Assembly (NCBI RefSeq): GCF_041886205.1
Contig: NZ_CP169029.1
DNA length: 64,000 nucleotides
From: Escherichia coli
GTDB taxonomy: Bacteria > Pseudomonadota > Gammaproteobacteria > Enterobacterales > Enterobacteriaceae
Reading direction: 5' to 3' (one strand)
Program-made: the position numbers and the translations under genes
The notes under the pieces: model-generated
The model's database searches: none
Told to the model about the DNA's origin: nothing
Seen by the model: only the letters and a program-made list of their open reading frames with translations
Part shown: one piece after another, positions 1-29,646 of the stretch
Position numbering within the stretch: the first letter of the stretch is position 1
Layout: every line of letters begins with the position of its first letter

Positions 1-121
1 ATTGAAAACGAAACGACATGCGCCTGCGAAGCGCCTCATTTCACGCTCCTGTTGACCACCGGGTCTTAACTGGAATTTAAATGCCTGTAGTCGTTTCACA
101 GGTCAAATTATATTTTGGTCT

Positions 122-688
122 GTGAAAAAAGAAACCGATATCCGGCGTGGAAGGCATTGTGTTTTCCTGAAGCATGTTCACATGGTCTTTGTCACCAAAT
201 ACCGACGCCAGATTTTTGACCATGACGCGACAGAAAAACTACGCACTTACTTTTCAAATGTATGTGCTGATTTTGAAGCTGAACTGGTTGAAATGGATGG
301 CGAACCAGATCACGTCCATTTGTTAATTAACTATCCTCCCAAACTGGCGATATCCAGTCTGATAAACAGCCTCAAAAGCGTATCGGGTAGGTTACTGCGA
401 CGAGATCGACCAGATATTGCAGTCAGGTATTACTACAAAGGCGTTTTGTGGAGTCCTGGCTATTTTGCCAGTAGCTGCGGAGGTGCGCCAATATCCGTCA
501 TCCGCCAATACATTGAACAACAGCAAACACCTGGTCAGGTGGAAAACCGCGCCTTATATCCCCGCCCTGAAGGACGGGGTTTTACGGCGCACCGGATAAA
601 TTCGCCTCACGGCATCAACCCATTGAACAGACGTTTTTTACGCGGCCCGGTCATTAAAGATTCCAGTTTCGCGACACAGGTTTTGTAG
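122..688 (+). CDS. IS200/IS605-family transposase TnpA (Y1 HUH enzyme); 188-aa ORF, likely with a C-terminal read-through extension
   Basis: Translation has the HUH motif (PDHVHLLI), a conserved Tyr in [15 protein letters not shown] and a [13 protein letters not shown] tail, closely resembling IS608-type TnpA; the ORF continues about 30 aa past the usual family end and overlaps lsrG antisense. Confidence 0.7.
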
Positions 689-897
689 TGGGGCGTGGTT
701 TTATGGAACGCCACTGCGTCTTCATCTTTATAGGCTTCGTAGATATAAAAGCGCGAATTCACTTCCGGGTCCTGTAAGACATCGAAGCGCAAATTGCCTT
801 CTTCCTGTACAGAGCCCAGGTGGTTCTGGCGAAAAACTTCGATAAACTCGTCAACCTTGTCTTCATGAACGTTAATTTCAACCAGTGTGACGTGCAT
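607..897 (-). CDS. lsrG: LsrG, phospho-AI-2 isomerase (96 aa)
   Basis: ORF translation [18 protein letters not shown]..., antibiotic-biosynthesis-monooxygenase-like fold; position downstream of lsrF; ORF-track start trimmed to MHVTL. Confidence 0.9.
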
Positions 898-919: not shown

Positions 920-1795
920 TTACTGTTTTTCACTCAGATAGAGTTCATATGCCCGATCAGCCGTTTCGTTATGGTGTACCACCGCCTGTACGGCTTTCAT
1001 CATCGCCACCGGATGGTCAGACTGGAAAATATTACGCCCCATATCCACACCAGAAGCGCCCTGATCGATAGCCTGCCAGCACATTTCCAGCGCCTCGCGC
1101 TCCGGTAATTTTTTACCGCCAGCAATAACAATGGGTACCGGACATCCGGCAACAATCCGTTCAAAACCTTTATCGACATAATAGGTTTTGATAATTTGCG
1201 CCCCCATTTCAGCGGCGATTCGAGTCGCGAGCGAGAAATAACGCTGATCGCGCACCATATCTTTGCCCACGCCTGTCACGGCCATGGTCGGCATTCCCAC
1301 TTTCATTCCGGCATCAACCAGCTGAATAATATTTTTGATCGACTGATGTTCATATTCGCTGCCGATATAAACCTGCGCCGCCACCGCGCAACTGTTCAGG
1401 CGCACGGCGTCATCCATCGATAACGCCACGGCTTCATTACTTAATTCCGCCAGAATAGAGTTCGCACCTGACGCCCGCAGTACCACCGGCCTATTGGTCG
1501 CAGGGGGAACTACGCTGCGCAAAATGCCGCGCGTACACATTAATACATCGGCATGTTCAAACAGCGGGGCGATATTTATATCAATGCGTTCAAGTCCGGT
1601 AGTCGGTCCCTGAAAATAACCATGGTCAAAAGCCAGCATCACGGTTTTACCCGTTTTCGGATTAAATATCCGCGATAAGCGTGACTGCATTCCCCAATCC
1701 AGCGCACCGCAACCTTTCAGGGTAAAAGGGATATTTTTTTGCGGTTGATCGGTACGAAAATCTTTACCATCTTTAATATCGTCTAAATCTGCCAT
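920..1795 (-). CDS. lsrF: LsrF, 3-hydroxy-5-phosphonooxypentane-2,4-dione thiolase (aldolase-like), 291 aa
   Basis: Full-length ORF; class I aldolase-like sequence; operon context lsrACDBFG. Confidence 0.9.
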
Positions 1796-1821: not shown

Positions 1822-2844
1822 TCAGAAATCGTATTTGCCGATATTCTCTTTGTTGAATATCACGCGCTCCGGTAACAGTACGATGCCATTACCATCCGCT
1901 TCGTAGTCATAGCCCTGAACGCTGTTTGGCGAGACTTCAACCTGACCTACGCCCTTGATATCCAGCTTGTCGCCCGTTTTCATTGATCCTTTTTTCAATA
2001 ATGCATCCGCGACATACACTGAAATTTTGCCTTGCTGAACCACATCCCACAGGCCAAATTCTTTCACCGTGCCGCGCTCTACATACGGGCGCATCACATT
2101 TGGCGTACTGAATCCGACAATCGCAACTTTGTCATTTTTCAGGTTTTCTGCGGCTTGTGCGGCAGCGGGCAGGGCGTTGGCATCAGGGGCGATAATGGCG
2201 TCGAGATCGCTATACGCTTTTAATATTCCTTCTGCGGTTTGTAACGATTTAGTGGCATCGTTATAGCCAAACTGCGTAGTGACAATTTCCCAGCCAGGAT
2301 GCTCTTTGGCGATTTTCGCTTTCGCTTCTTTCACCCACTGGTTTTGGTCCGTAACGGTGGGGCTTGAGTAGAAAAACGCGACTTTGGCTTTGTCTTTATT
2401 CACCTGACGCGCCGCCATATCCACCAACATACCTCCCAACTGGGCGGGCGTTCCCTGATTAATGTAGTAAGAGCGGCACTCCGGTTTAGTATCAGAGTCC
2501 CAGGTCAGCACTCTCACACCACGTTGCATGGCGCGTTTCAGTGCCGGACACAAGCCATCAGGCGAAACCGCAGAAACGATAATGGCGTTATAACCCTGAT
2601 TGACGAAGTTATTAATCAACTGTACCTGACCAGAAACACTGGGTTCTGTCGGCCCGTCGTAGGTCACATCAACGCCCAGCTCTTTACCCGCTTGTTGTGC
2701 GCCGTTGCCACCACTGGTAAAAAATCCCACGCCAACCAGTTTGGGAATAAATGCAATACGCTCTGCGGCCTGCACATTCATAGAGATTGCGGCAATGCCA
2801 AGAGCGCTAAGTAAGGCGATTTTCTTAAAGCGATGAAGTGTCAT
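1822..2844 (-). CDS. lsrB: LsrB, periplasmic AI-2 binding protein (340 aa)
   Basis: N-terminal signal peptide ([26 protein letters not shown]), periplasmic sugar-binding fold; operon context. Confidence 0.9.
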
Positions 2845-2855
2845 GAAGATATCCT

Positions 2856-3848
2856 TTATGGCAATGGGTTATTGGCCCGACGCGCCAGCCACTCTTTAAT
2901 TTGCTGGCGATGCAGGCTAACGGAACGACCTACGACAACGACGATAAGTAGCGCACCGGAAAGGGCGCTGGACACCTGATTTGGCACTCCTGCCATTTGC
3001 AAACCTTGTTGCAAATATCCCACTAATAAAACCGCAATGGCGGTGCCGATAATGGAACCGGAACCACCATAAATATTGGCACCGCCAAGCACCACGGCGG
3101 TGATGGCGGGCATCAGAAACGACGCACCGAGATCGGAACGTGCTGAACCAAAATACGATACCAGCAGCACAGCGGCGACCGCAGACGCCAGCCCCGTCAT
3201 GGCATAGAGCGCACATAAGGTGCGGTTAACTGGAATCGCGCTATAAAGCGCCACGCGCGGGCTTTGCCCAATCAAAAACACATTACGTCCGGCATGGGTT
3301 TTATGCAGCCAGAGCCAGAAAACGAGGAGACATATCAGGAAGATAATCAGCGGAACGGGGAGCCCCAGCACATCCAGGTTAGCGAAATCTGTAAACGCCA
3401 TCGGGAATCCACCAATATCTTCGTACCCCGTCGCTCCGGCCATCCCGGAAAGCAGCAGGGCACTTCCGGCAAACAGATACAGCGTGCCAAGCGTAATCAC
3501 CAGCGGGTTAACTTTGGTATAGATAATTAATCCGGCGTTGATCAGCCCGCACAATACGCCGAGCAGTAAGGTCAGGAGTATCGCCAGCGGCATCGGCACA
3601 CCACTTTGAAACAGTACGCCCAATGCAATGGCGCAGAGGCCGATGGTCGAACCAAACGAAATATCGATCCCGCCACTGACAATCACCATCGTCAGCGGTA
3701 GGGCGACAATGCCAATGCAGATAAAGTCACTGGTGCTGAACAGCAACATATTGAGATCTAACATCCGCGGGTTAATTGCACCAAATGCGACAATCTCAAT
3801 AACGAGCAGTGCGGCAAGAGCCAGTTCCCAACCGTAGCGAATACGCAT
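2856..3848 (-). CDS. lsrD: LsrD, AI-2 ABC transporter permease (330 aa)
   Basis: Polytopic hydrophobic ORF; position between lsrC and lsrB. Confidence 0.9.
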
Positions 3849-4876
3849 TATGCGGCCTCCCGTTTTTTACCTGACGAAGCGGGTTTAACGGATGGCGGTG
3901 GCGTCATAAAGCGGGCATATTTTTGCCGCCGCAGATTACGTTCCAGCGCACAACGCAGGCGTCCATCAAACACCAGCACCGCTAGCAGCACGAGGCCCGC
4001 GATAAAATCGTTCCACCATGCCGGAATGCGCAACAGCACCAGTACGCTATCGATCTGCGTCAGGAACCATGCGCCGAGTACCGCACCGATGATCGCACCG
4101 GAACCGCCGAGCAAACTAATGCCGCCCAGCACGCAGGCTGCAATTGCTTTCATCTCCAGCCCGGTACCGGTCTGGTTGGGGATAAAACCAATCTGCGAAG
4201 CAAACACAATCCCCGCCAGTGCCGCCATGCAGCCGTTCAACGAAAATGCCACAATGCGAATGGCTTCCGTACGAACGCCCAGTTGACGAGCTCCCTGTAA
4301 ATTATCGCCCGTGGCATAAAAACTGCGTCCAAACGCCGTCTTTGCCAGCAGCCAGGCCATAAATGCCACCAGAATTATCGTTAACTAACCAATTGCTGAA
4401 ACGCCAAGCAGCAGCGGGGCGGAGAGCTGTTTCAGTTCGGCGGGTAACCCCTCAATCCATTTACCGCCAGTCCACAGCAACATGATGCCTCTGTACAACC
4501 CTAACGAGCCAAGGGTGGCAACAATGGCAGGGATCTTTAGCCACGCGACCAGGACACCGTTGAAAAATCCCGCGAGCAAACCAAGCAGTAAAGTCGCGAC
4601 ACAGGCAACAGGTAGTGAATATCCTGCGTTCAGTAACATCCCCAACAGCACCGCGCACATTCCGGTAATCGAACCCACTGAAACATCAATATTGCGCGTA
4701 AGCATTACCAGCGTCGCGCCCATTGCCAGCAGGATCAGGATTTGCGCGCTGCTATAAACCATGGTCAGCGTTTGCACACTTAAATACTGGCGGTCGAGAA
4801 AACCGGGTAATACAAACAGCAGCACCACCGCCAGCAGTGCCGTGATTTCACGGTTGTTCTGAATAAACTTCAGCAT
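3848..4876 (-). pseudogene. lsrC: lsrC, AI-2 ABC transporter permease interrupted by an in-frame TAG stop at codon 164 (complement of 4385-4387)
   Basis: Two same-frame ORFs (4385..4876 and 3848..4369) separated only by one stop codon; total span 1029 nt = 342 codons + stop, the length of an intact LsrC; sequence around the stop reads [19 protein letters not shown] where a Trp codon (TGG) is expected. Confidence 0.8.
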
Positions 4877-6395
4877 GACGCCTCCTGACGCTGACTATCG
4901 CCGAAGGCAACGCGCATAATAGTCTCGACATTAATATCGCGCCCGGTCAGTGCAGAGTGGGTAATTTCGCCCTGATGCATCACATACACACGATCTGCCA
5001 TCAGTTCGATCTCTTCCAGATCAGAGGAGATAAGCAGCACTGCCACATTCTGTGCGGCGATGCTGCGCAACAGCTGGTAGATATCATTACGGGCTGAGAC
5101 ATCCACGCCGCGCGTCGGCTCATCGACAATCAATGCTTGCGGCGAAGCTTCCAGGCATTTGGCAATGAGGATTTTTTGCTGGTTGCCACCGGATAATGTC
5201 CGTGCAGCTTGTTCCGGTTGGTTAAATTTAATATTCAGCGCCCGACGATATCGTTCCAGGGTGGCATTATCTTTCGCGGTTTTCGCCCAGAATCCACGAA
5301 GGTTATGAGTAAGGGCGCAGACGTTCCACGCCAGTGAAGCATCGAGATTCAGTCCGGATGACTGGCGATCTTCCGGCAGATAAACCAGACCGCGCAGTAA
5401 ACGTTCTCCGGTGGATAATCTATTGATCTCTTTACCATTCAGCATAATGCTTCCGCCACGCAAACTACGCAGACCATAGAGCGTCTCGGCCAGTTCTGTG
5501 CGTCCGGCTCCCACCAGCCCAGCCAGGCCCAGAATTTCTCCGGCATTGAGCGTCAGGCTGACATTCCTGAAACCTTCGCCAGTCAGATTTTCCAGTGTCA
5601 GCACCGACGTTCCGGCGGCATGTTGTGGGCGGTTACCAGGTAACTCCAGCCATAATTTTTGGCTGGCAGAGAGCGATTTTTCCCGTACCACTGGCGTGAT
5701 GGCCTGAATAATGTCGTCGGTAGACAGTTCGCTGGTTTTGCCGCTTAAGGCGATGGTTCCGTCGCGCATCACGCTAATTCGATCGGCAATCTGGCGAATT
5801 TCCGGCAGCTTATGCGAGATAAAAACAATACCCACGCCAGTAGCAAGCAGCTCTTGCAAGCGACTAAACAAGCGTTCGGTTTCCGCAGGGGTAAGCGAGG
5901 CGGTAGGTTCAGAATCCGCGAGTCGCGCATCAGCCCGCGGAGGATTTCCACCATTTGGCGATCGGCGACATCCAGCGATCCTGCCAGACTATGCAGATCA
6001 AACTGGCAGCCCAGCGCCGCCAGCAAGTTCTTCATTTTCTGCATGGAGAGCTGTTTTTTTGCCAGCCCAAACAGGATGTTTTCTTTTATCGACAGGCTTG
6101 GAAAAAGCAGCGGTTCCTGGGGAACGAGATAAATACCCAGCTGATGAGCATGAACTGGCGTTAATCTGGCGTAGTTGTTGCCCCCAATCTTCAGCGTACC
6201 GCTATCAGCAGGGGTAATACCGGCAATAATCTTCATTAACGTCGATTTACCGGCACCATTGCCGCCGAGCAGGGCGTGGACCTCCCCCTGATGCAACGTA
6301 AAATCGATGCCTTTCAGGACATTGACCCCTGAATACTGTTTATAAACCGAGCGGGCGCAAAGTAGCGGTAACGCGCGGGTATCACTCGTTTGCAT
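4870..6395 (-). pseudogene. lsrA: lsrA, AI-2 ABC transporter ATPase with a 10-nt deletion (frameshift) removing the first Walker B motif
   Basis: N-terminal ORF (5769..6395) leaves frame after ...[15 protein letters not shown]; the second ORF (4870..5871) is in another frame and resumes [22 protein letters not shown]...; total span 1526 nt against 1536 nt expected for a 511-aa LsrA; junction at about 5910/5911. Confidence 0.8.
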
Positions 6396-6643
6396 ATTTC
6401 CCCTGTTCAGTTTTGCAGGTGAGTTTTGAACAAATGTATTTCTGCTTTTAATTTGTTCATAACCTTAGGTGGACATTGCACATATTTCCGACGAATAGAT
6501 CACAATTTATGCTATTTTGATTCTCCCGGTTGCGTTTGTTCATACTCGTAGAGTCAAACTGTGGTTGCCATCACAGATATAAATGCGCAAGAACTGAACA
6601 ATTGCATTAAAGATTTAAATATGTTCAAAGTGAAGAATGAATT
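6396..6643. promoter_or_regulatory. lsrR / lsrACDBFG divergent promoter region (LsrR- and CRP-controlled in K-12); candidate CRP half-site near 6484-6505
   Basis: Divergent gene arrangement; AT-rich 248-bp intergenic region; TGTGA half-site on the minus strand (...gaatagatcaca...). Confidence 0.55.
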
Positions 6644-7597
6644 ATGACAATCAACGATTCGGTAATTTCAGAACAGGGAATGTGTGAAGAAGAACAGGTC
6701 GCGCGGATCGCGTGGTTTTACTACCACGACGGGCTGACCCAGAGTGAGATCAGCGATCGTCTCGGCCTGACCCGTTTGAAAGTGTCGCGATTACTGGAGA
6801 AAGGGCATCAATCCGGCATTATTCGCGTACAGATTAATTCTCGCTTTGAAGGCTGTCTGGAATATGAAACACAATTACGTCGTCAGTTTTCGCTGCAACA
6901 TGTCCGGGTGATCCCAGGGCTTGCGGATGCTGATGTCGGCGGGCGACTAGGGATAGGCGCGGCGCATATGTTGATGAGTTTACTTCAACCACAACAGATG
7001 CTGGCGATTGGTTTTGGCGAGGCAACCATGAATACGCTGCAACGCTTAAGTGGTTTTATTTCGTCACAGCAAATTCGCCTGGTCACGCTCTCCGGTGGAG
7101 TCGGTTCTTATATGACGGGTATCGGGCAGCTTAACGCGGCGTGCAGTGTGAATATTATTCCGGCTCCGTTGCGGGCATCCTCCGCTGACATTGCCCGTAC
7201 GCTAAAAAATGAAAATTGCGTCAAAGATGTTCTGCTAGCCGCGCAAGCAGCGGATGTGGCGATTGTCGGCATTGGTGCTGTGAGTCAACAGGACGATGCG
7301 ACAATCATTCGCTCCGGTTATATCAGCCAGGGCGAACAGTTAATGATTGGCCGAAAAGGTGCAATTGGCGACATTTTAGGCTACTTTTTTGATGCAAAAG
7401 GTGACGTTGTCACGGATATTAAAATACATAACGAACTGATTGGCTTACCTTTAAGCGCGCTGAAGACCATACCCGTCCGGGTTGGCGTGGCAGGGGGAGA
7501 AAATAAAGCCGAAGCAATTGTCGCTGCAATGAAAGGCGGTTATATCAACGCACTGGTCACCGATCAGGACACAGCAGCGGCGATTTTACGTAGTTAA
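6644..7597 (+). CDS. lsrR: LsrR, SorC-family repressor of the lsr operon (317 aa)
   Basis: Full-length ORF; N-terminal HTH and SorC-type sugar-phosphate binding domain; divergent from lsrA. Confidence 0.9.
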
Positions 7598-7675: not shown

Positions 7676-9268
7676 ATGGCTCGACTCTTTACCCCTTCAG
7701 AATCAAAGTATTACCTGATGGCGCTGGATGCAGGTACCGGAAGTATTCGGGCTGTGATATTCGACCTGGAAGGCAATCAAATAGCAGTGGGACAGGCGGA
7801 GTGGCGGCACCTGGCAGTACCGGACGTTCCTGGTTCTATGGAATTTGATCTCAACAAAAACTGGCAACTGGCGTGTGAGTGTATGCGCCAGGCGCTGCAC
7901 AACGCCGGCATAGCCCCGGAGTATATCGCTGCCGTTTCGGCATGTTCGATGCGTGAAGGCATTGTTTTATATAACAATGAAGGAACACCGATCTGGGCCT
8001 GCGCCAATGTGGATGCCAGAGCGGCGCGCGAAGTTAGCGAACTTAAAGAACTGCACAACAATACCTTTGAAAACGAAGTTTATCGCGCGACCGGACAAAC
8101 ACTGGCTTTAAGTGCCATCCCCAGATTACTTTGGCTGGCGCACCATCGTTCCGATATTTACCGTCAGGCATCAACCATCACCATGATCAGCGACTGGCTG
8201 GCCTATATGCTCAGCGGCGAACTTGCGGTGGATCCCTCTAACGCTGGCACCACGGGACTTCTTGATCTAACCATCCGTGACTGGAAACCTGCATTGCTGG
8301 ATATGGCTGGCCTGCGTGCCGATATTCTTTCTCCTGTCAAAGAAACCGGCACATTGCTGGGCGTGGTAAGTTCACAAGCGGCGGAACTCTGCGGTCTGAA
8401 GGTGGGCACTCCGGTGGTCGTTGGAGGAGGCGACGTGCAGCTTGGTTGCCTGGGGTTAGGCATTGTGCGTCCGGCACAAACCGCGGTTCTTGGCGGCACA
8501 TTCTGGCAGCAAGTTGTAAATTTAGCCGCGCCGGTGACAGACCCAGAAATGAACGTGCGCGTTAATCCTCATGTTATTCCTGGCATGGTACAAGCTGAAT
8601 CTATAAGCTTTTTTACCGGACTCACCATGCGCTGGTTCCGCGATGCTTTCTGTGCCGAAGAAAAACTGATTGCCGAACGTTTAGGCATCGACACCTATAC
8701 GCTGCTGGAAGAGATGGCCAGTCGGGTGCCGCCTGGGTCGTGGGGCGTAATGCCGATCTTCTCCGACAGAATGCGCTTTAAAACCTGGTATCACGCTGCG
8801 CCTTCCTTTATTAATTTGTCCATTGACCTGGATAAATGTAACAAAGCGACATTGTTCCGTGCGCTGGAAGAAAATGCGGCGATTGTATCAGCGTGTAATT
8901 TGCAGCAAATTGCTGATTTCTCGAATATTCATCCCACCTCGCTGGTTTTTGCTGGCGGAGGTTCAAAAGGGAAATTATGGAGTCAAATTCTCGCTGATGT
9001 CTCGGGATTACCCGTCAATATTCCGGTAGTCAAAGAAGCCACCGCATTAGGATGTGCCATTGCAGCTGGCGTCGGTGCCGGAATTTTTTCATCAATGGCA
9101 GAAACCGGAGAACGCCTGGTTCGCTGGGAACGGACGCACACACCAGACCCGGAAAAGCATGAACTTTATCAGGATTCACGCGATAAGTGGCAGGCAGTTT
9201 ATCAGGATCAGCTGGGGCTGGTTGATCATGGACTGACGACGTCGTTATGGAAAGCGCCTGGGTTATAG
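7676..9268 (+). CDS. lsrK: LsrK, autoinducer-2 kinase (FGGY carbohydrate kinase family, 530 aa)
   Basis: FGGY-kinase-like translation; immediately downstream of lsrR. Confidence 0.9.
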
Positions 9269-9798: not shown

Positions 9799-12700
9799 AT
9801 GAATAGAATCTATCGCGTGATATGGAATTGCACCCTACAGGTATTTCAGGTCTGCTCGGAATTAACTCGCAGGGTAGGTAAAAAATCGACGGTTAATTTG
9901 CGTAAATCCTCTGGACTGACAACGAAATTCAGTAGATTGACGCTGGGTGTTTTGCTGGCACTAAGCGGTTCAGCGTCTGGTGCGAGTCTGGAAGTTGATA
10001 ATGATCAGATTACCAATATTGATACTGATGTTGCTTATGATGCCTACCTGGTTGGCTGGTATGGCACTGGAGTGCTTAATATTTTGGCTGGCGGTAATGC
10101 CTCCTTAACCACGATTACTACCAGCGTCATTGGTGGTAATGAGAACTCGAAGGGCACCGTTAATGTTTTGGGTGGCACCTGGCGATTGTATGATAGCGGA
10201 AATAATGCAAGGCCTTTAAATGTGGGTCAATCCGGAACGGGGACGCTGAATATTAAACAGAAAGGTCACGTTGATGGAGGATATTTAAGGCTAGGTTCCT
10301 CGACAGGAGGCGTCGGGACGGTCAATGTTGAGGGAGAGGACTCTGTTCTGACGACCGAATTATTCGAAATAGGGAGCTATGGCACAGGCTCATTAAATAT
10401 TACAGATAAGGGTTACGTCACGAGTTCAATAGTCGCCATTTTAGGCTATCAGGCGGGCGGTAATGGCCAGGTTGTCGTGGAAAAGGGCGGCGAGTGGCTA
10501 ATAAAAAATAACGATTCCTCAATTGAATTTCAAATTGGTAATCAAGGAACGGGGGAAGCGACTATTCGCGGGGGTGGGCTGATTACGGCTGAAAACACGA
10601 TTATCGGTGGCAATGCCACCGGTATCGGAACCCTGAATGTGCAGGATCAAGACTCTGTCATCACGGTACGCAGACTCTATAATGGATATTTCGGCAATGG
10701 CACAGTCAATATTTCCAATAATGGACTGATTAATAACAAAGAATATTCATTGGTGGGCGTTCAGGACGGTTCCCACGGTGTCATCAACGTGACCGATAAA
10801 GGGCATTGGAATTTCCTCGGAACAGGCGAAGCTTTCCGCTATATCTATATCGGTGATGCTGGCGACGGTGAACTTAATGTCTCGAGTGAAGGCAAAGTAG
10901 ATTCGGGAATTATCACTGCGGGGATGAAAGAAACAGGCACAGGCAACATTACTGTTAAGGATAAGAACTCCGTTATCACTAATCTCGGAACTAATCTTGG
11001 TTATGACGGCCACGGCGAAATGAATATCAGTAATGAGGGGCTTGTTGTCAGCAACGGAGGAAGTTCACTCGGTTATGGAGAAACCGGCGTCGGGAATGTC
11101 AGCATCACCACGGGGGGGATGTGGGAGGTCAATAAGAATGTCTATACCACCATTGGTGTTGCGGGTGTCGGAAACCTCAATATTAGCGATGGCGGTAAGT
11201 TTGTATCGCAAAATATTACTTTTTTGGGCGATAAAGCAAGCGGTATCGGCACACTGAACCTGATGGATGCGACATCATCGTTCGATACTGTGGGTATCAA
11301 TGTCGGTAATTTTGGTAGCGGTATCGTAAATGTCAGTAATGGTGCCACCCTTAATTCAACGGGCTATGGATTTATCGGAGGAAATGCCTCCGGTAAGGGG
11401 ATAGTTAATATTTCAACGGATAGTCTCTGGAATTTAAAGACATCATCTACTAACGCCCAATTGCTACAGGTCGGTGTATTAGGCACGGGTAAACTGAATA
11501 TTACCACCGGAGGTATAGTTAAAGCGCGTGATACACAGATAGCTCTCAATGACAAAAGTAAGGGCGACGTGAGGGTGGATGGGCAGAACTCTCTGCTTGA
11601 AACATTCAATATGAACGTAGGGACGACTGGCACGGGTACGTTAACCCTGACGAATAACGGCACGCTGAATGTTGAGGGTGGCGAAGTTTACTTAGGTGTT
11701 TTTGAACCTGCTGTAGGAACGCTAAACATTGGTGCTGCTCACGGTGAGGCGGCGGCAGATGCCGGGTTTATCACCAACGCGACGAAAGTAGAGTTTGGTT
11801 CTGGCGAAGGTGTTTTTGTCTTTAATCATACCAATAACAGTGATACCGGCTACCAGGTCGATATGCTGATTACGGGTGACGATAAAGACGGAAAAGTGAT
11901 ACATGATGCAGGCCATACGGTGTTCAATGCAGGGAATACTTATAGCGGTAAAACGCTGGTCAATGACGGCCTCCTGACCATTGCGTCACATACGGCAGAT
12001 GGGGTAACGGGCATGGGTTCGAGTGAAGTAACCATTGCAAGCCCCGGTACGCTCGACATTCTCGCATCAACGAACAGTGCAGGAGATTACACGCTGACCA
12101 ATGCGCTCAAAGGCGATGGCTTGATGCGAGTTCAGCTGTCATCCTCCGACAAGATGTTTGGCTTTACCCATGCAACAGGGGCTGAATTCGCCGGTGTTGC
12201 CCAACTGAAAGACAGTACCTTCACTCTGGAACGCGACAACACCGCTGCGCTTACTCACGCGATGTTGCAGTCTGACATTGAAAATACCACATCGGTAAAC
12301 GTGGGAGAGCAATCCATTGGTGGACTGGCCATGAATGGCGGTACGCTCATTTTCGATACGGATATTCCTGCTGCGACGCTTGCAGAGGGATATATCAGCG
12401 TCGATACGCTGGTTGTCGGCGCGGGTGACTACACCTGGAAAGGCCGTAACTATCAGGTAAACGGGACGGGCGACGTGCTTATCGACGTGCCTAAACCGTG
12501 GAATGATCCCATGGCGAATAACCCTCTGACGACGCTCAATTTGCTGGAACACGATGATAGCCATGTCGGCGTTCAACTGGTGAAGGCGCAAACGGTTATT
12601 GGGTCGGGTGGTTCATTAACGTTACGTGATTTACAGGGCAACGAGGTGGAAGCGGACAAAACGTTACATATTGCGCAAAACGGAACGGTGGTCGCCGAGG

Positions 12701-26399: not shown

Positions 26400-27695
26400 A
26401 TGACTCAACAACCATCGCGTACCGGCACGTTCGGCGCAATACTCCGTGTTACCAGCGGTAATTTCCTCGAACAGTTCGATTTTTTCCTGTTTGGTTTTTA
26501 CGCTACTTATATCGCAAAGACGTTTTTTCCTGCCGAAAGTGAGTTTGCCGCATTAATGCTTACTTTTGCCGTTTTTGGCTCCGGCTTTTTAATGCGCCCT
26601 ATCGGGGCCGTGGTATTGGGTGCATATATCGACAGAATTGGGCGACGGAAAGGGCTGATGGTTACCCTGGCGATTATGGGCTGCGGCACGATGCTCATCG
26701 CCCTCGTTCCGGGTTATCAGACTATCGGCCTGCTGGCCCCTGTACTGGTCCTGGTGGGGCGTCTGCTACAGGGATTTTCTGCTGGAGTCGAACTGGGCGG
26801 CGTCTCTGTTTATCTTTCTGAGATCGCCACACCAGGCAATAAAGGCTTTTATACCAGTTGGCAATCGGCCAGCCAGCAGGTGGCGATTGTGGTCGCCGCG
26901 CTGATCGGGTACGGTCTGAATGCCACGCTGGGACACGATGAAATCTCCGAATGGGGTTGGCGAATACCGTTCTTCATTGGCTGCATGATTATTCCGCTGA
27001 TTTTTGTTCTGCGACGTTCGCTTCAGGAAACTGAAACCTTTTTACAGCGTAAACACCGTCCGGACACCCGGGAAATTTTTACCACCATTGCTAAAAACTG
27101 GCGTATTATCACTGCGGGAACCCTGCTGGTGGCGATGACGACCACGACATTTTATTTTATTACTGTCTATACCCCCACTTACGGGAGAACGGTGTTGAAC
27201 CTGAGCGCACGTGATAGTCTGATCGTCACTATGCTGGTAGGGATTTCTAACTTTATATGGCTGCCGATTGGCGGCGCGATCTCTGACCGGATTGGGCGTC
27301 TCCCGGTGCTAATGGGCATCACCTTACTCGCCATCGTCACCACCTGGCCGGTGATGCACTGGCTTACCGCTGCACCTGACGTCACCCGCATGACACTGGT
27401 GCTGCTCTGGTTCTCGTTCTTTTTTGGGATGTATAACGGTGCAATGGTAGCAGCCCTGACAGAAGTGATGCCGGTTTATGTCCGAACCGTGGGTTTTTCG
27501 CTGGCCTTTAGTCTCGCCACGGCGATTTTCGGCGGCCTGACACCAGCCATCTCCACTGCATTGGTCCAGTTGACAGGCGATAAAAGTTCTCCTGGATGGT
27601 GGCTAATGTGCGCTGCGCTGTGCGGGCTCGCCGCGACGACAATACTGTTTGCTCGTCTCAGTAGTGGTTATCAGACAGTAAAAAATAAGCTCTGA
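26400..27695 (+). CDS. tcuC: TcuC-like MFS transporter (citrate/tricarballylate-proton symporter family), 431 aa
   Basis: 12-TM MFS protein with a metabolite-proton symporter signature; last gene of the cluster. Confidence 0.8.
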
Positions 27696-28779: not shown

Positions 28780-29646
28780 CTAAGCGAGGTTCTTGTTTTC
28801 AAATTGTTCCGGACTGAGGCCGCCACACCAACTGTGCCGCCGCCACCGATTGTAATCACATTCGATATAATTAAACACCGTTGCCCGCATTATTTCCCGG
28901 CTGATAAAGTGTTCTCCATGGATACATTCCACTTTCAGCGAATGAAAGAAGCTTTCCACGCAGGCATTATCGTAGCAGCAACCTTTTGCGCTCATACTTC
29001 CACGCAGATTATGCCGCTTCAGTTGCGCCTGATAATCTGCTGAACAGTACTGGCCTCCACGGTCCGTGTGAACGATAACGTTCCGGGGCCTCTTACGCCG
29101 CCACAGCGCCATCTGCAGGGCATCGCAGGCCAGTTGCGCCGTCATGCGTGGCGACATTGACCAGCCAATAACGGCACGTGACCACAGGTCAATGACCACT
29201 GCCAGATACAGCCAGCCTTCATCTGTACGTAAGTACGTGATGTCTCCTGCCCACTTCTGGTTCGGGCCACTGGCGTAAAAATCCTGCTCCAACAGATTTT
29301 CTGACACAGGCAGGCCGTTTGCGCGGTAGCTGACCGGGCTGAACTTCCGGGAGGCCTTTGCCCTCAGTCCCTGACGGCGCAGGCTTGCCGCCACGGTTTT
29401 TACGTTAAAGGGGTAACCCTGAGCACGCAGTTCATCCGTCAGGCGTGGGGCACCGTAACGCTGTTTTGACCGGGTAAAAGCCGCGAGGACAACGCTGTCG
29501 CAGTGTTGGCGGAACTGCTGACGCGTGCTTATCCTTGTCCGCCGCTGACACCACGTATACCAGCCGCTGCGGGCCACCCGGAGCACGCGGCACATTGCTT
29601 TGATGCTGAACTCAGCCTGATGTTTTTCAATAAAGACATACTTCAT
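28780..29646 (-). CDS. insF: IS3 OrfB transposase (DDE integrase domain), 288 aa
   Basis: Translation [32 protein letters not shown]...; DDE catalytic domain; overlaps orfA in the -1 frame. Confidence 0.85.

Follow-up and report, generated by a model that had tools for sequence, protein, structure and literature searches.

The gene for LsrA, the ATPase of the AI-2 ABC importer, is broken in an E. coli genome (RefSeq assembly GCF_041886205.1). We analyzed a stretch of 64,000 nucleotides of its contig NZ_CP169029.1, referred to below as the window, and asked whether the break is genuine, what is left of the gene and of the transporter, and how the allele came to be where it is found. The initial annotation, made from the letters of the window, had described a 10-nt frameshift deletion (Δ10) that removes the first Walker B motif of LsrA, splits the gene into two ORFs in different frames and truncates the protein. 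The lsr genes run in the order lsrG-F-B-D-C-A on the minus strand, with lsrR-lsrK on the plus strand, and the locus is collinear with those of K-12 and of strain wlxctx60 (Table 1).

Table 1. Features of the lsr locus and of the broken lsrA gene (window coordinates).
Feature	Coordinates	Strand	Remarks
lsrG	607..897	-	Intact
lsrF	920..1795	-	Intact
lsrB	1822..2844	-	Intact
lsrD (permease)	2856..3848	-	Intact ORF with a Gly>Asp missense change
lsrC (permease)	3848..4876	-	Nonsense W164*
lsrA pseudogene (AI-2 ABC importer ATPase)	4870..6395	-	1526 nt instead of 1536
Deletion junction GGATTC-TGA-ACCTACC	5902..5917	-	Retained TGA 5911..5909
ORF1, 208-aa truncated product	5769..6395	-	162 native residues and a 46-residue out-of-frame tail
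Out-of-frame tail of ORF1	5909..5772	-	Stop TGA 5771..5769
Native downstream lsrA frame, E166 onward (end of NBD1 and all of NBD2)	4870..5910	-	Out of frame with the start codon
ORF2, 333 aa from TTG	5871..4870	-	In the open reading frame list; NCBIfam match
299-aa ORF from the native Met213 codon	4870..5769	-	ATG overlaps the ORF1 stop (GTGATG)
Divergent lsrR-lsrA control region	6396..6643	.	SNP at 6526
lsrR	6644..7597	+	Intact
lsrK	7676..9268	+	Intact

The deletion in lsrA and the frames it leaves

Aligned with MAFFT to K-12 lsrA (the copy from NEB5-alpha, L003), window lsrA has one 10-nt gap and zero further indels, and base-level comparison with thousands of other genomes agrees. The reference is a single ORF of 1536 nt, so it shares neither the length nor the frame of the window gene, whose span had been given correctly. 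The single gap that a pairwise alignment was expected to show near position 5910 lies exactly there, at the retained TGA. Either TGATCCTCGA or its equivalent TCCTCGATGA can be taken as the missing block, whose placement is ambiguous only within the TGA triplet that flanks both ends. Where K-12 reads CGG ATT CTG ATC CTC GAT GAA CCT (R I L I L D E P), the window reads CGGATTCTGAACCT. Codons I163, L164 and D165 are lost, together with one base of the E166 codon, and with them the I-L-D of the first Walker B motif.

One part of the initial annotation did not survive this comparison. It had ascribed the deletion to a direct repeat, ATTCTG ATTCTG GATGAACCT; the reference actually reads ATTCTGATCCTCGATGAACCT across the site, that is, ATTC followed by TGATCCTCGA and TGAACCT, and has no ATTCTG repeat. 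The ends of Δ10 share only a 3-nt TGA, which sits inside the imperfect 7-mers TGAtCCT and TGAaCCT at a spacing of 10 nt. Slippage between the two TGA triplets during replication or repair is a plausible origin that is compatible with this microhomology, and such a slip would remove exactly the three codons and one base that are missing. By a rough estimate, about 5% of random deletions would show a 3-nt microhomology by chance. The site is neither a homopolymer nor a low-complexity tract.

In K-12 LsrA the first Walker B motif comprises I161-L-I-L-D165-E166 (ILILDEPT, 161-168), and the H-loop of the same domain lies at residues 196-200. The Walker B Asp of ABC ATPases coordinates Mg2+ and the adjacent Glu is the catalytic base. 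Within ILILDE, the lesion would take away the end of the beta-strand and the Asp that coordinates Mg2+, and put the catalytic Glu out of frame. No frame of window lsrA contains the ILD codons.

The two ORFs that the initial annotation described are both present. The upstream frame is native through L162 and the downstream frame reads as it had been translated, preceded by S. An intact gene is one ORF of about 511 codons; in the window, the first in-frame stop is codon 209. Translation would run out of frame for 46 codons to this TGA, and the product would be a 208-aa fragment. ORF1 keeps the Walker A motif (44-52), the Q-loop and the degenerate signature (140-147) of NBD1, and lacks its Walker B motif, D-loop and H-loop as well as NBD2. 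Against NF011967, the NCBIfam model of LsrA (a CUT2-type tandem-NBD ATPase), ORF1 matches positions 1-164 with an E-value of 6e-86, and ORF2 matches positions 179-510 with an E-value of 3e-182 and 606 bits against a cut-off of 586. Positions 165-178, the Walker B block, fall outside both matches.

Orthology to lsrA is clear from DNA identity (97.7% to K-12 lsrA and 100% to wlxctx60 lsrA) and from genomic context, and the uninterrupted ORF of ~511 codons and the NBD1 Walker B motif are missing. The gap is not a multiple of three relative to about 4,086 genomes and is followed by a stop 46 codons on, as in a small-indel pseudogene. Judged by its sequence, window lsrA is a gene remnant rather than a functional member of the LsrA family.

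Carriers and descent of the allele

The gene lsrA is present in 4,196 of 5,426 complete E. coli genomes, and about 4,086 have the undeleted state (111 nt aligned to our 101-nt junction query). The exact junction was found in only two of the 5,426: wlxctx60, from Asiatic black bear faeces in Japan, and 6EVA, from human faeces in Singapore. PGAP labels lsrA as frameshifted in both (AC6IW3_RS10180 and SE698_RS10290, respectively). Exact copies of the 208-aa protein are EKI53597.1 (E. coli N1) and GDH10412.1, and the same protein is encoded on 165 contigs, with ~198 sample blocks indexed. The exact 22-nt junction is present in all retrieved carrier loci that span the site, which came from independent runs and metagenome assemblies. 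Carriers of Δ10 occur in human, animal and metagenome samples. We considered programmed ribosomal frameshifting or recoding and rejected it; the junction occurs in just two of the complete genomes and is not conserved among orthologues. Recoding could not restore LsrA in any case, because the ILD codons are physically missing and no frame gives a Walker B motif.

All Δ10 carriers examined have the same lsrA haplotype and the same flanks, within 0-1 SNP. Window lsrA is identical to that of wlxctx60 and 1 nt from that of 6EVA, and the nearest intact allele, in LHM10-1, differs from it by the 10 nt and one SNP. Taken together, the shared haplotype of the carriers and an intact neighbor only one SNP away indicate that Δ10 arose once and recently and has been inherited within a clone. 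The window is ~99.95% identical to wlxctx60 over the aligned stretches; its strain is related to wlxctx60, yet different from it, and is most likely E. coli N1 or one of the clone-mates of N1.

Two other accounts of this distribution have to be weighed against descent from one event. The initial annotation had allowed that the 10 nt might really be present and have been lost in a short repeat during assembly. We regard this as practically impossible: the same junction is found in two independently finished genomes from different countries and hosts and in every site-covering carrier locus from separate runs and metagenome assemblies, the exact truncated protein recurs on 165 contigs, and the site has neither a homopolymer nor a low-complexity tract. 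Since the same 10 nt are missing from many independent assemblies, an artefact is rejected at the level of assembled sequence. The other account holds that the Walker B segment of lsrA is prone to deletion and that Δ10 has arisen several times. JNEC-KY179 (L004, 2546-4073), a complete genome with a different haplotype, does carry an independent 8-nt deletion a few nucleotides downstream, although the alignment places no microhomology at its ends. The protein cluster of the 208-aa product also contains other nearby -1 frameshifts (P0003-P0011), among them one from a base missing in codon I163 (P0008) and one from a base missing in a CCCC run. However, this check used a 90% protein cluster, in which membership requires a shared out-of-frame tail, so the nearby frameshifts group together by ascertainment bias, and where an assembly of raw runs shows an indel of one base, this may be a read error. 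We therefore set the cluster aside as evidence for a hotspot. With all examined carriers of the 10-nt deletion on one haplotype with the same flanks, repeated origin of Δ10 is very improbable.

Predicted loss of transport and further lesions in the locus

An ABC importer requires both of its NBDs in a head-to-tail sandwich, and each ATP site is formed by the Walker A and Walker B motifs of one NBD against the signature of the other. The 208-aa fragment has no Walker B motif, no D-loop or H-loop and no NBD2, and LsrACDB is for that reason predicted not to be energised. From ABC-ATPase biochemistry, K-12 knockouts and the secondary lesions of the carriers, we infer that Lsr-dependent AI-2 uptake has been lost. 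AI-2 production and slow Lsr-independent entry would remain. K-12 knockouts of lsrA, lsrB, lsrC or lsrD clear AI-2 less efficiently (PMC3595036). The same slow clearance is predicted for the window strain, where a stop in lsrC would reinforce it.

This second lesion had escaped the initial annotation. It is a TGG>TAG change in lsrC (G>A at 4386, stop codon 4387..4385) that replaces W164 and is absent from wlxctx60, 6EVA and K-12. The resulting 163-aa LsrC fragment is identical to EKI53599.1 of E. coli N1 and is found on 15-17 contigs, always together with lsrA Δ10 where the contig reaches lsrA. Carriers of W164* are the window, L006/L009 and L007, all of them within the Δ10 carriers. Read from the two genes, the transporter of the window strain appears to be knocked out twice. 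In the same sub-lineage, a derived Gly>Asp change in lsrD (GGT>GAT at 3418, YEGIGG>YEDIGG) occurs together with the lsrC stop.

Over the 12.4-kb lsr stretch, the window differs from wlxctx60 by four SNPs. Three of them (4386, 3418 and 6526) are in the lsr locus, and these are derived changes confined to the sub-lineage of the window. The SNP at 6526 lies between lsrR and lsrA, at -131 from the lsrA ATG, and reads T>G on the lsrA strand (CCGTGAGA>CCGGGAGA). In the layout of control sites given in PMC5137460 it is outside the p-lsrR box (-237..-197), and it might alter a GTGA half-site of the second CRP box.

Other Δ10 carriers have been hit elsewhere in the locus. L012 has a +2 frameshift in lsrK, while 6EVA has a -1 frameshift in lsrB and an lsrK truncated by an inserted element. 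Most carriers have no second lesion, and in these lsrCDBFG, lsrR and lsrK are intact. Relaxed selection might show as extra mutations in the lsr stretch, but relative to wlxctx60 its SNP density matches that of the flank (4 in 12.4 kb and 9 in 25.8 kb, respectively), and the nested pattern of lesions is therefore qualitative rather than statistical. The pattern nevertheless suggests a founding lesion in lsrA followed by independent, nested knockouts. Δ10 can be identified with some confidence as the first hit of a circulating clone, because most carriers lack any other lesion. That the remaining lsr genes are intact in most carriers would fit a very recent lesion, and would also fit some retained use.

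We consider it highly probable (about 93%) that window lsrA is a recent natural pseudogene, in which a single 10-nt deletion truncated the protein and abolished Lsr-dependent AI-2 uptake, with one origin and later knockouts in its descendants. Once the transporter was dead, further genes could have been lost independently: lsrC by W164* in the window's sub-lineage, alongside the change in lsrD, and lsrK or lsrB elsewhere.

A functional LsrA in two pieces would contradict this reading. The stop of ORF1 and the native Met213 codon overlap as TGATG (5771..5767, within GTGATG), and the 299-aa ORF that starts there encodes the whole of NBD2, including its Walker A motif, signature, Walker B motif and H-loop. 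Gene callers predict this ORF in carrier contigs, and ORF2 alone scores above the cut-off of the LsrA model. The 299-aa ORF is a possible product of termination and reinitiation, even though no obvious Shine-Dalgarno sequence precedes its ATG, and its translation might ease polarity on the downstream genes. For LsrCD to be energised, the 208-aa and 299-aa fragments would have to work together, or fragments with NBD2 would have to suffice. The 299-aa fragment cannot restore NBD1: I163-L164-D165 are encoded in no frame, so this domain cannot bind Mg-ATP normally, and residues 166-212, including its D-loop and H-loop, are in neither product. About 4,086 genomes retain the single 511-codon ORF, lsrC is itself truncated in the window, and the separate secondary lesions that carriers have in lsrC, lsrB and lsrK point to a system that is no longer maintained. 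A split but working LsrA is accordingly very hard to credit. A different matter is whether loss of AI-2 import was advantageous, either by making cells signal-blind "cheaters" or by saving a cost, which is compatible with a recent pseudogene. Selection would explain why the clone spread and why more knockouts followed, and the allele has persisted across several hosts and countries, in many samples. Brito et al. (PMC3595036) argue that lsr pseudogenisation is too fast for neutrality and fits balancing or social selection, and in a 2025 study, the naturally lsr-negative strain 83972 became less fit and less competitive when lsr was restored (PMC12263705). On the other side, the allele is rare (2/5,426 complete genomes), SNP density is the same in lsr and in the flank, a second lesion is absent from most carriers, and hitch-hiking in a successful clone accounts for the counts equally well. 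The literature favors selection on lsr in general, with hitch-hiking its equal for the Δ10 counts, and we hold selected loss of this allele to be possible but doubtful. Very unlikely is a combined account in which codons ~160-180, which encode Walker B and the D-loop, form a recurrent deletion off switch for AI-2 import that selection has used repeatedly, with Δ10 as one successful case and the TGATG overlap keeping the rest of lsrA translated and thereby limiting polarity on lsrCDBFG.

Known counterparts and the surrounding region

As a recent pseudogene, lsrA Δ10 is an ordinary case, already flagged in RefSeq, in an operon known for decay. Brito, Rocha, Xavier and Gordo (2012, Genome Biol Evol, PMC3595036) showed that E. 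coli readily loses signal reception through lsr. They report 34 lsr pseudogenes in 44 E. coli genomes, six of which arose by small indels, a 7-bp deletion among them, and two by stop codons, and they infer that inactivation took place independently at least eight times and that decay then followed rapidly. The window resembles that set in its locus, in having a small frameshift indel and premature stops, in its stepwise decay after a first hit, in the mobile elements of its flanks and in a loss of signal reception that is independent of luxS. Neither its 10-nt deletion in Walker B nor the clone is named in the main text of that paper. A literature search, which for Brito et al. covered the main text, found no paper naming the lsrA Δ10 allele.

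Laboratory counterparts are the K-12 lsrA and lsrACDB knockouts and the lsrACD deletion of APEC94, for which the same phenotype is expected, slow removal of extracellular AI-2 with slow Lsr-independent entry kept (PMC3595036; cited in PMC12263705). Those are clean deletions, whereas the window has a natural frameshift that leaves a 208-aa fragment and possibly a C-terminal one. Among natural relatives, wlxctx60 and 6EVA share the lsrA junction but not lsrC W164*, and the E. coli N1 entries EKI53597.1 and EKI53599.1 match both window fragments, LsrA and LsrC, exactly.

The main additions made here are the nested lsrC nonsense mutation and the recognition of Δ10 as the probable first hit in a clone that is in circulation. 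The strain and its clone-mates are predicted to make AI-2 without actively re-importing it, which is relevant to quorum-sensing, colonisation and co-culture experiments. The clone is a clean natural case in which the founding lsr lesion can be told from later hits, and it could serve in population-genetic tests of selected loss of AI-2 reception. Beyond strain bookkeeping the allele means little; it introduces no new mechanism or family.

Several differences between the window and related strains were seen around the locus. In LHM10-1 (L017, 7530-8324), lsrC is 795 nt rather than 1029 nt, apparently through an internal in-frame deletion, which is another independent lesion in the same transporter. 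Between lsrG and tam, window positions 1-532 hold what is left of an IS200/IS605 tnpA and the beginning of a gene for TnpB, an InsQ-type RNA-guided endonuclease. This stretch is common to wlxctx60, 6EVA and LHM10-1 and absent from K-12; the 6EVA copy is much more divergent, with 17 differences in ~300 nt.

The hipBA-lsrK neighborhood is an insertion hot zone (window ~15650-17135 compared with L005 25787-48042). In wlxctx60, a defence island of ~15 kb (~15.4 kb) adjoins hipA, with an ABC-three-component system, an Ec78-type retron with PtuAB and two integrases, and TnAs1 lies inside hipA; the window has neither insertion. A phage-like element that truncates hipA and lsrK in 6EVA is likewise absent from the window, where a hipA-sized ORF is uninterrupted (15651..17030). 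Between lsrK and this ORF, at 9799-15219, is an ECSE_1600-family autotransporter ORF of 1806 aa, which is intact in the window and frameshifted in the K-12 derivative; the SNP at 10465, one of the four relative to wlxctx60, falls in it. Further along, an MFS transporter next to tcuRAB (26400-27695) is an intact 431-aa ORF in the window, where the wlxctx60 annotation has a frameshifted gene. The neighboring genes for a ydeQ-type fimbrial usher and for FimA are broken by an IS3 element in wlxctx60, and the window aligns without interruption there (~28780-29646).
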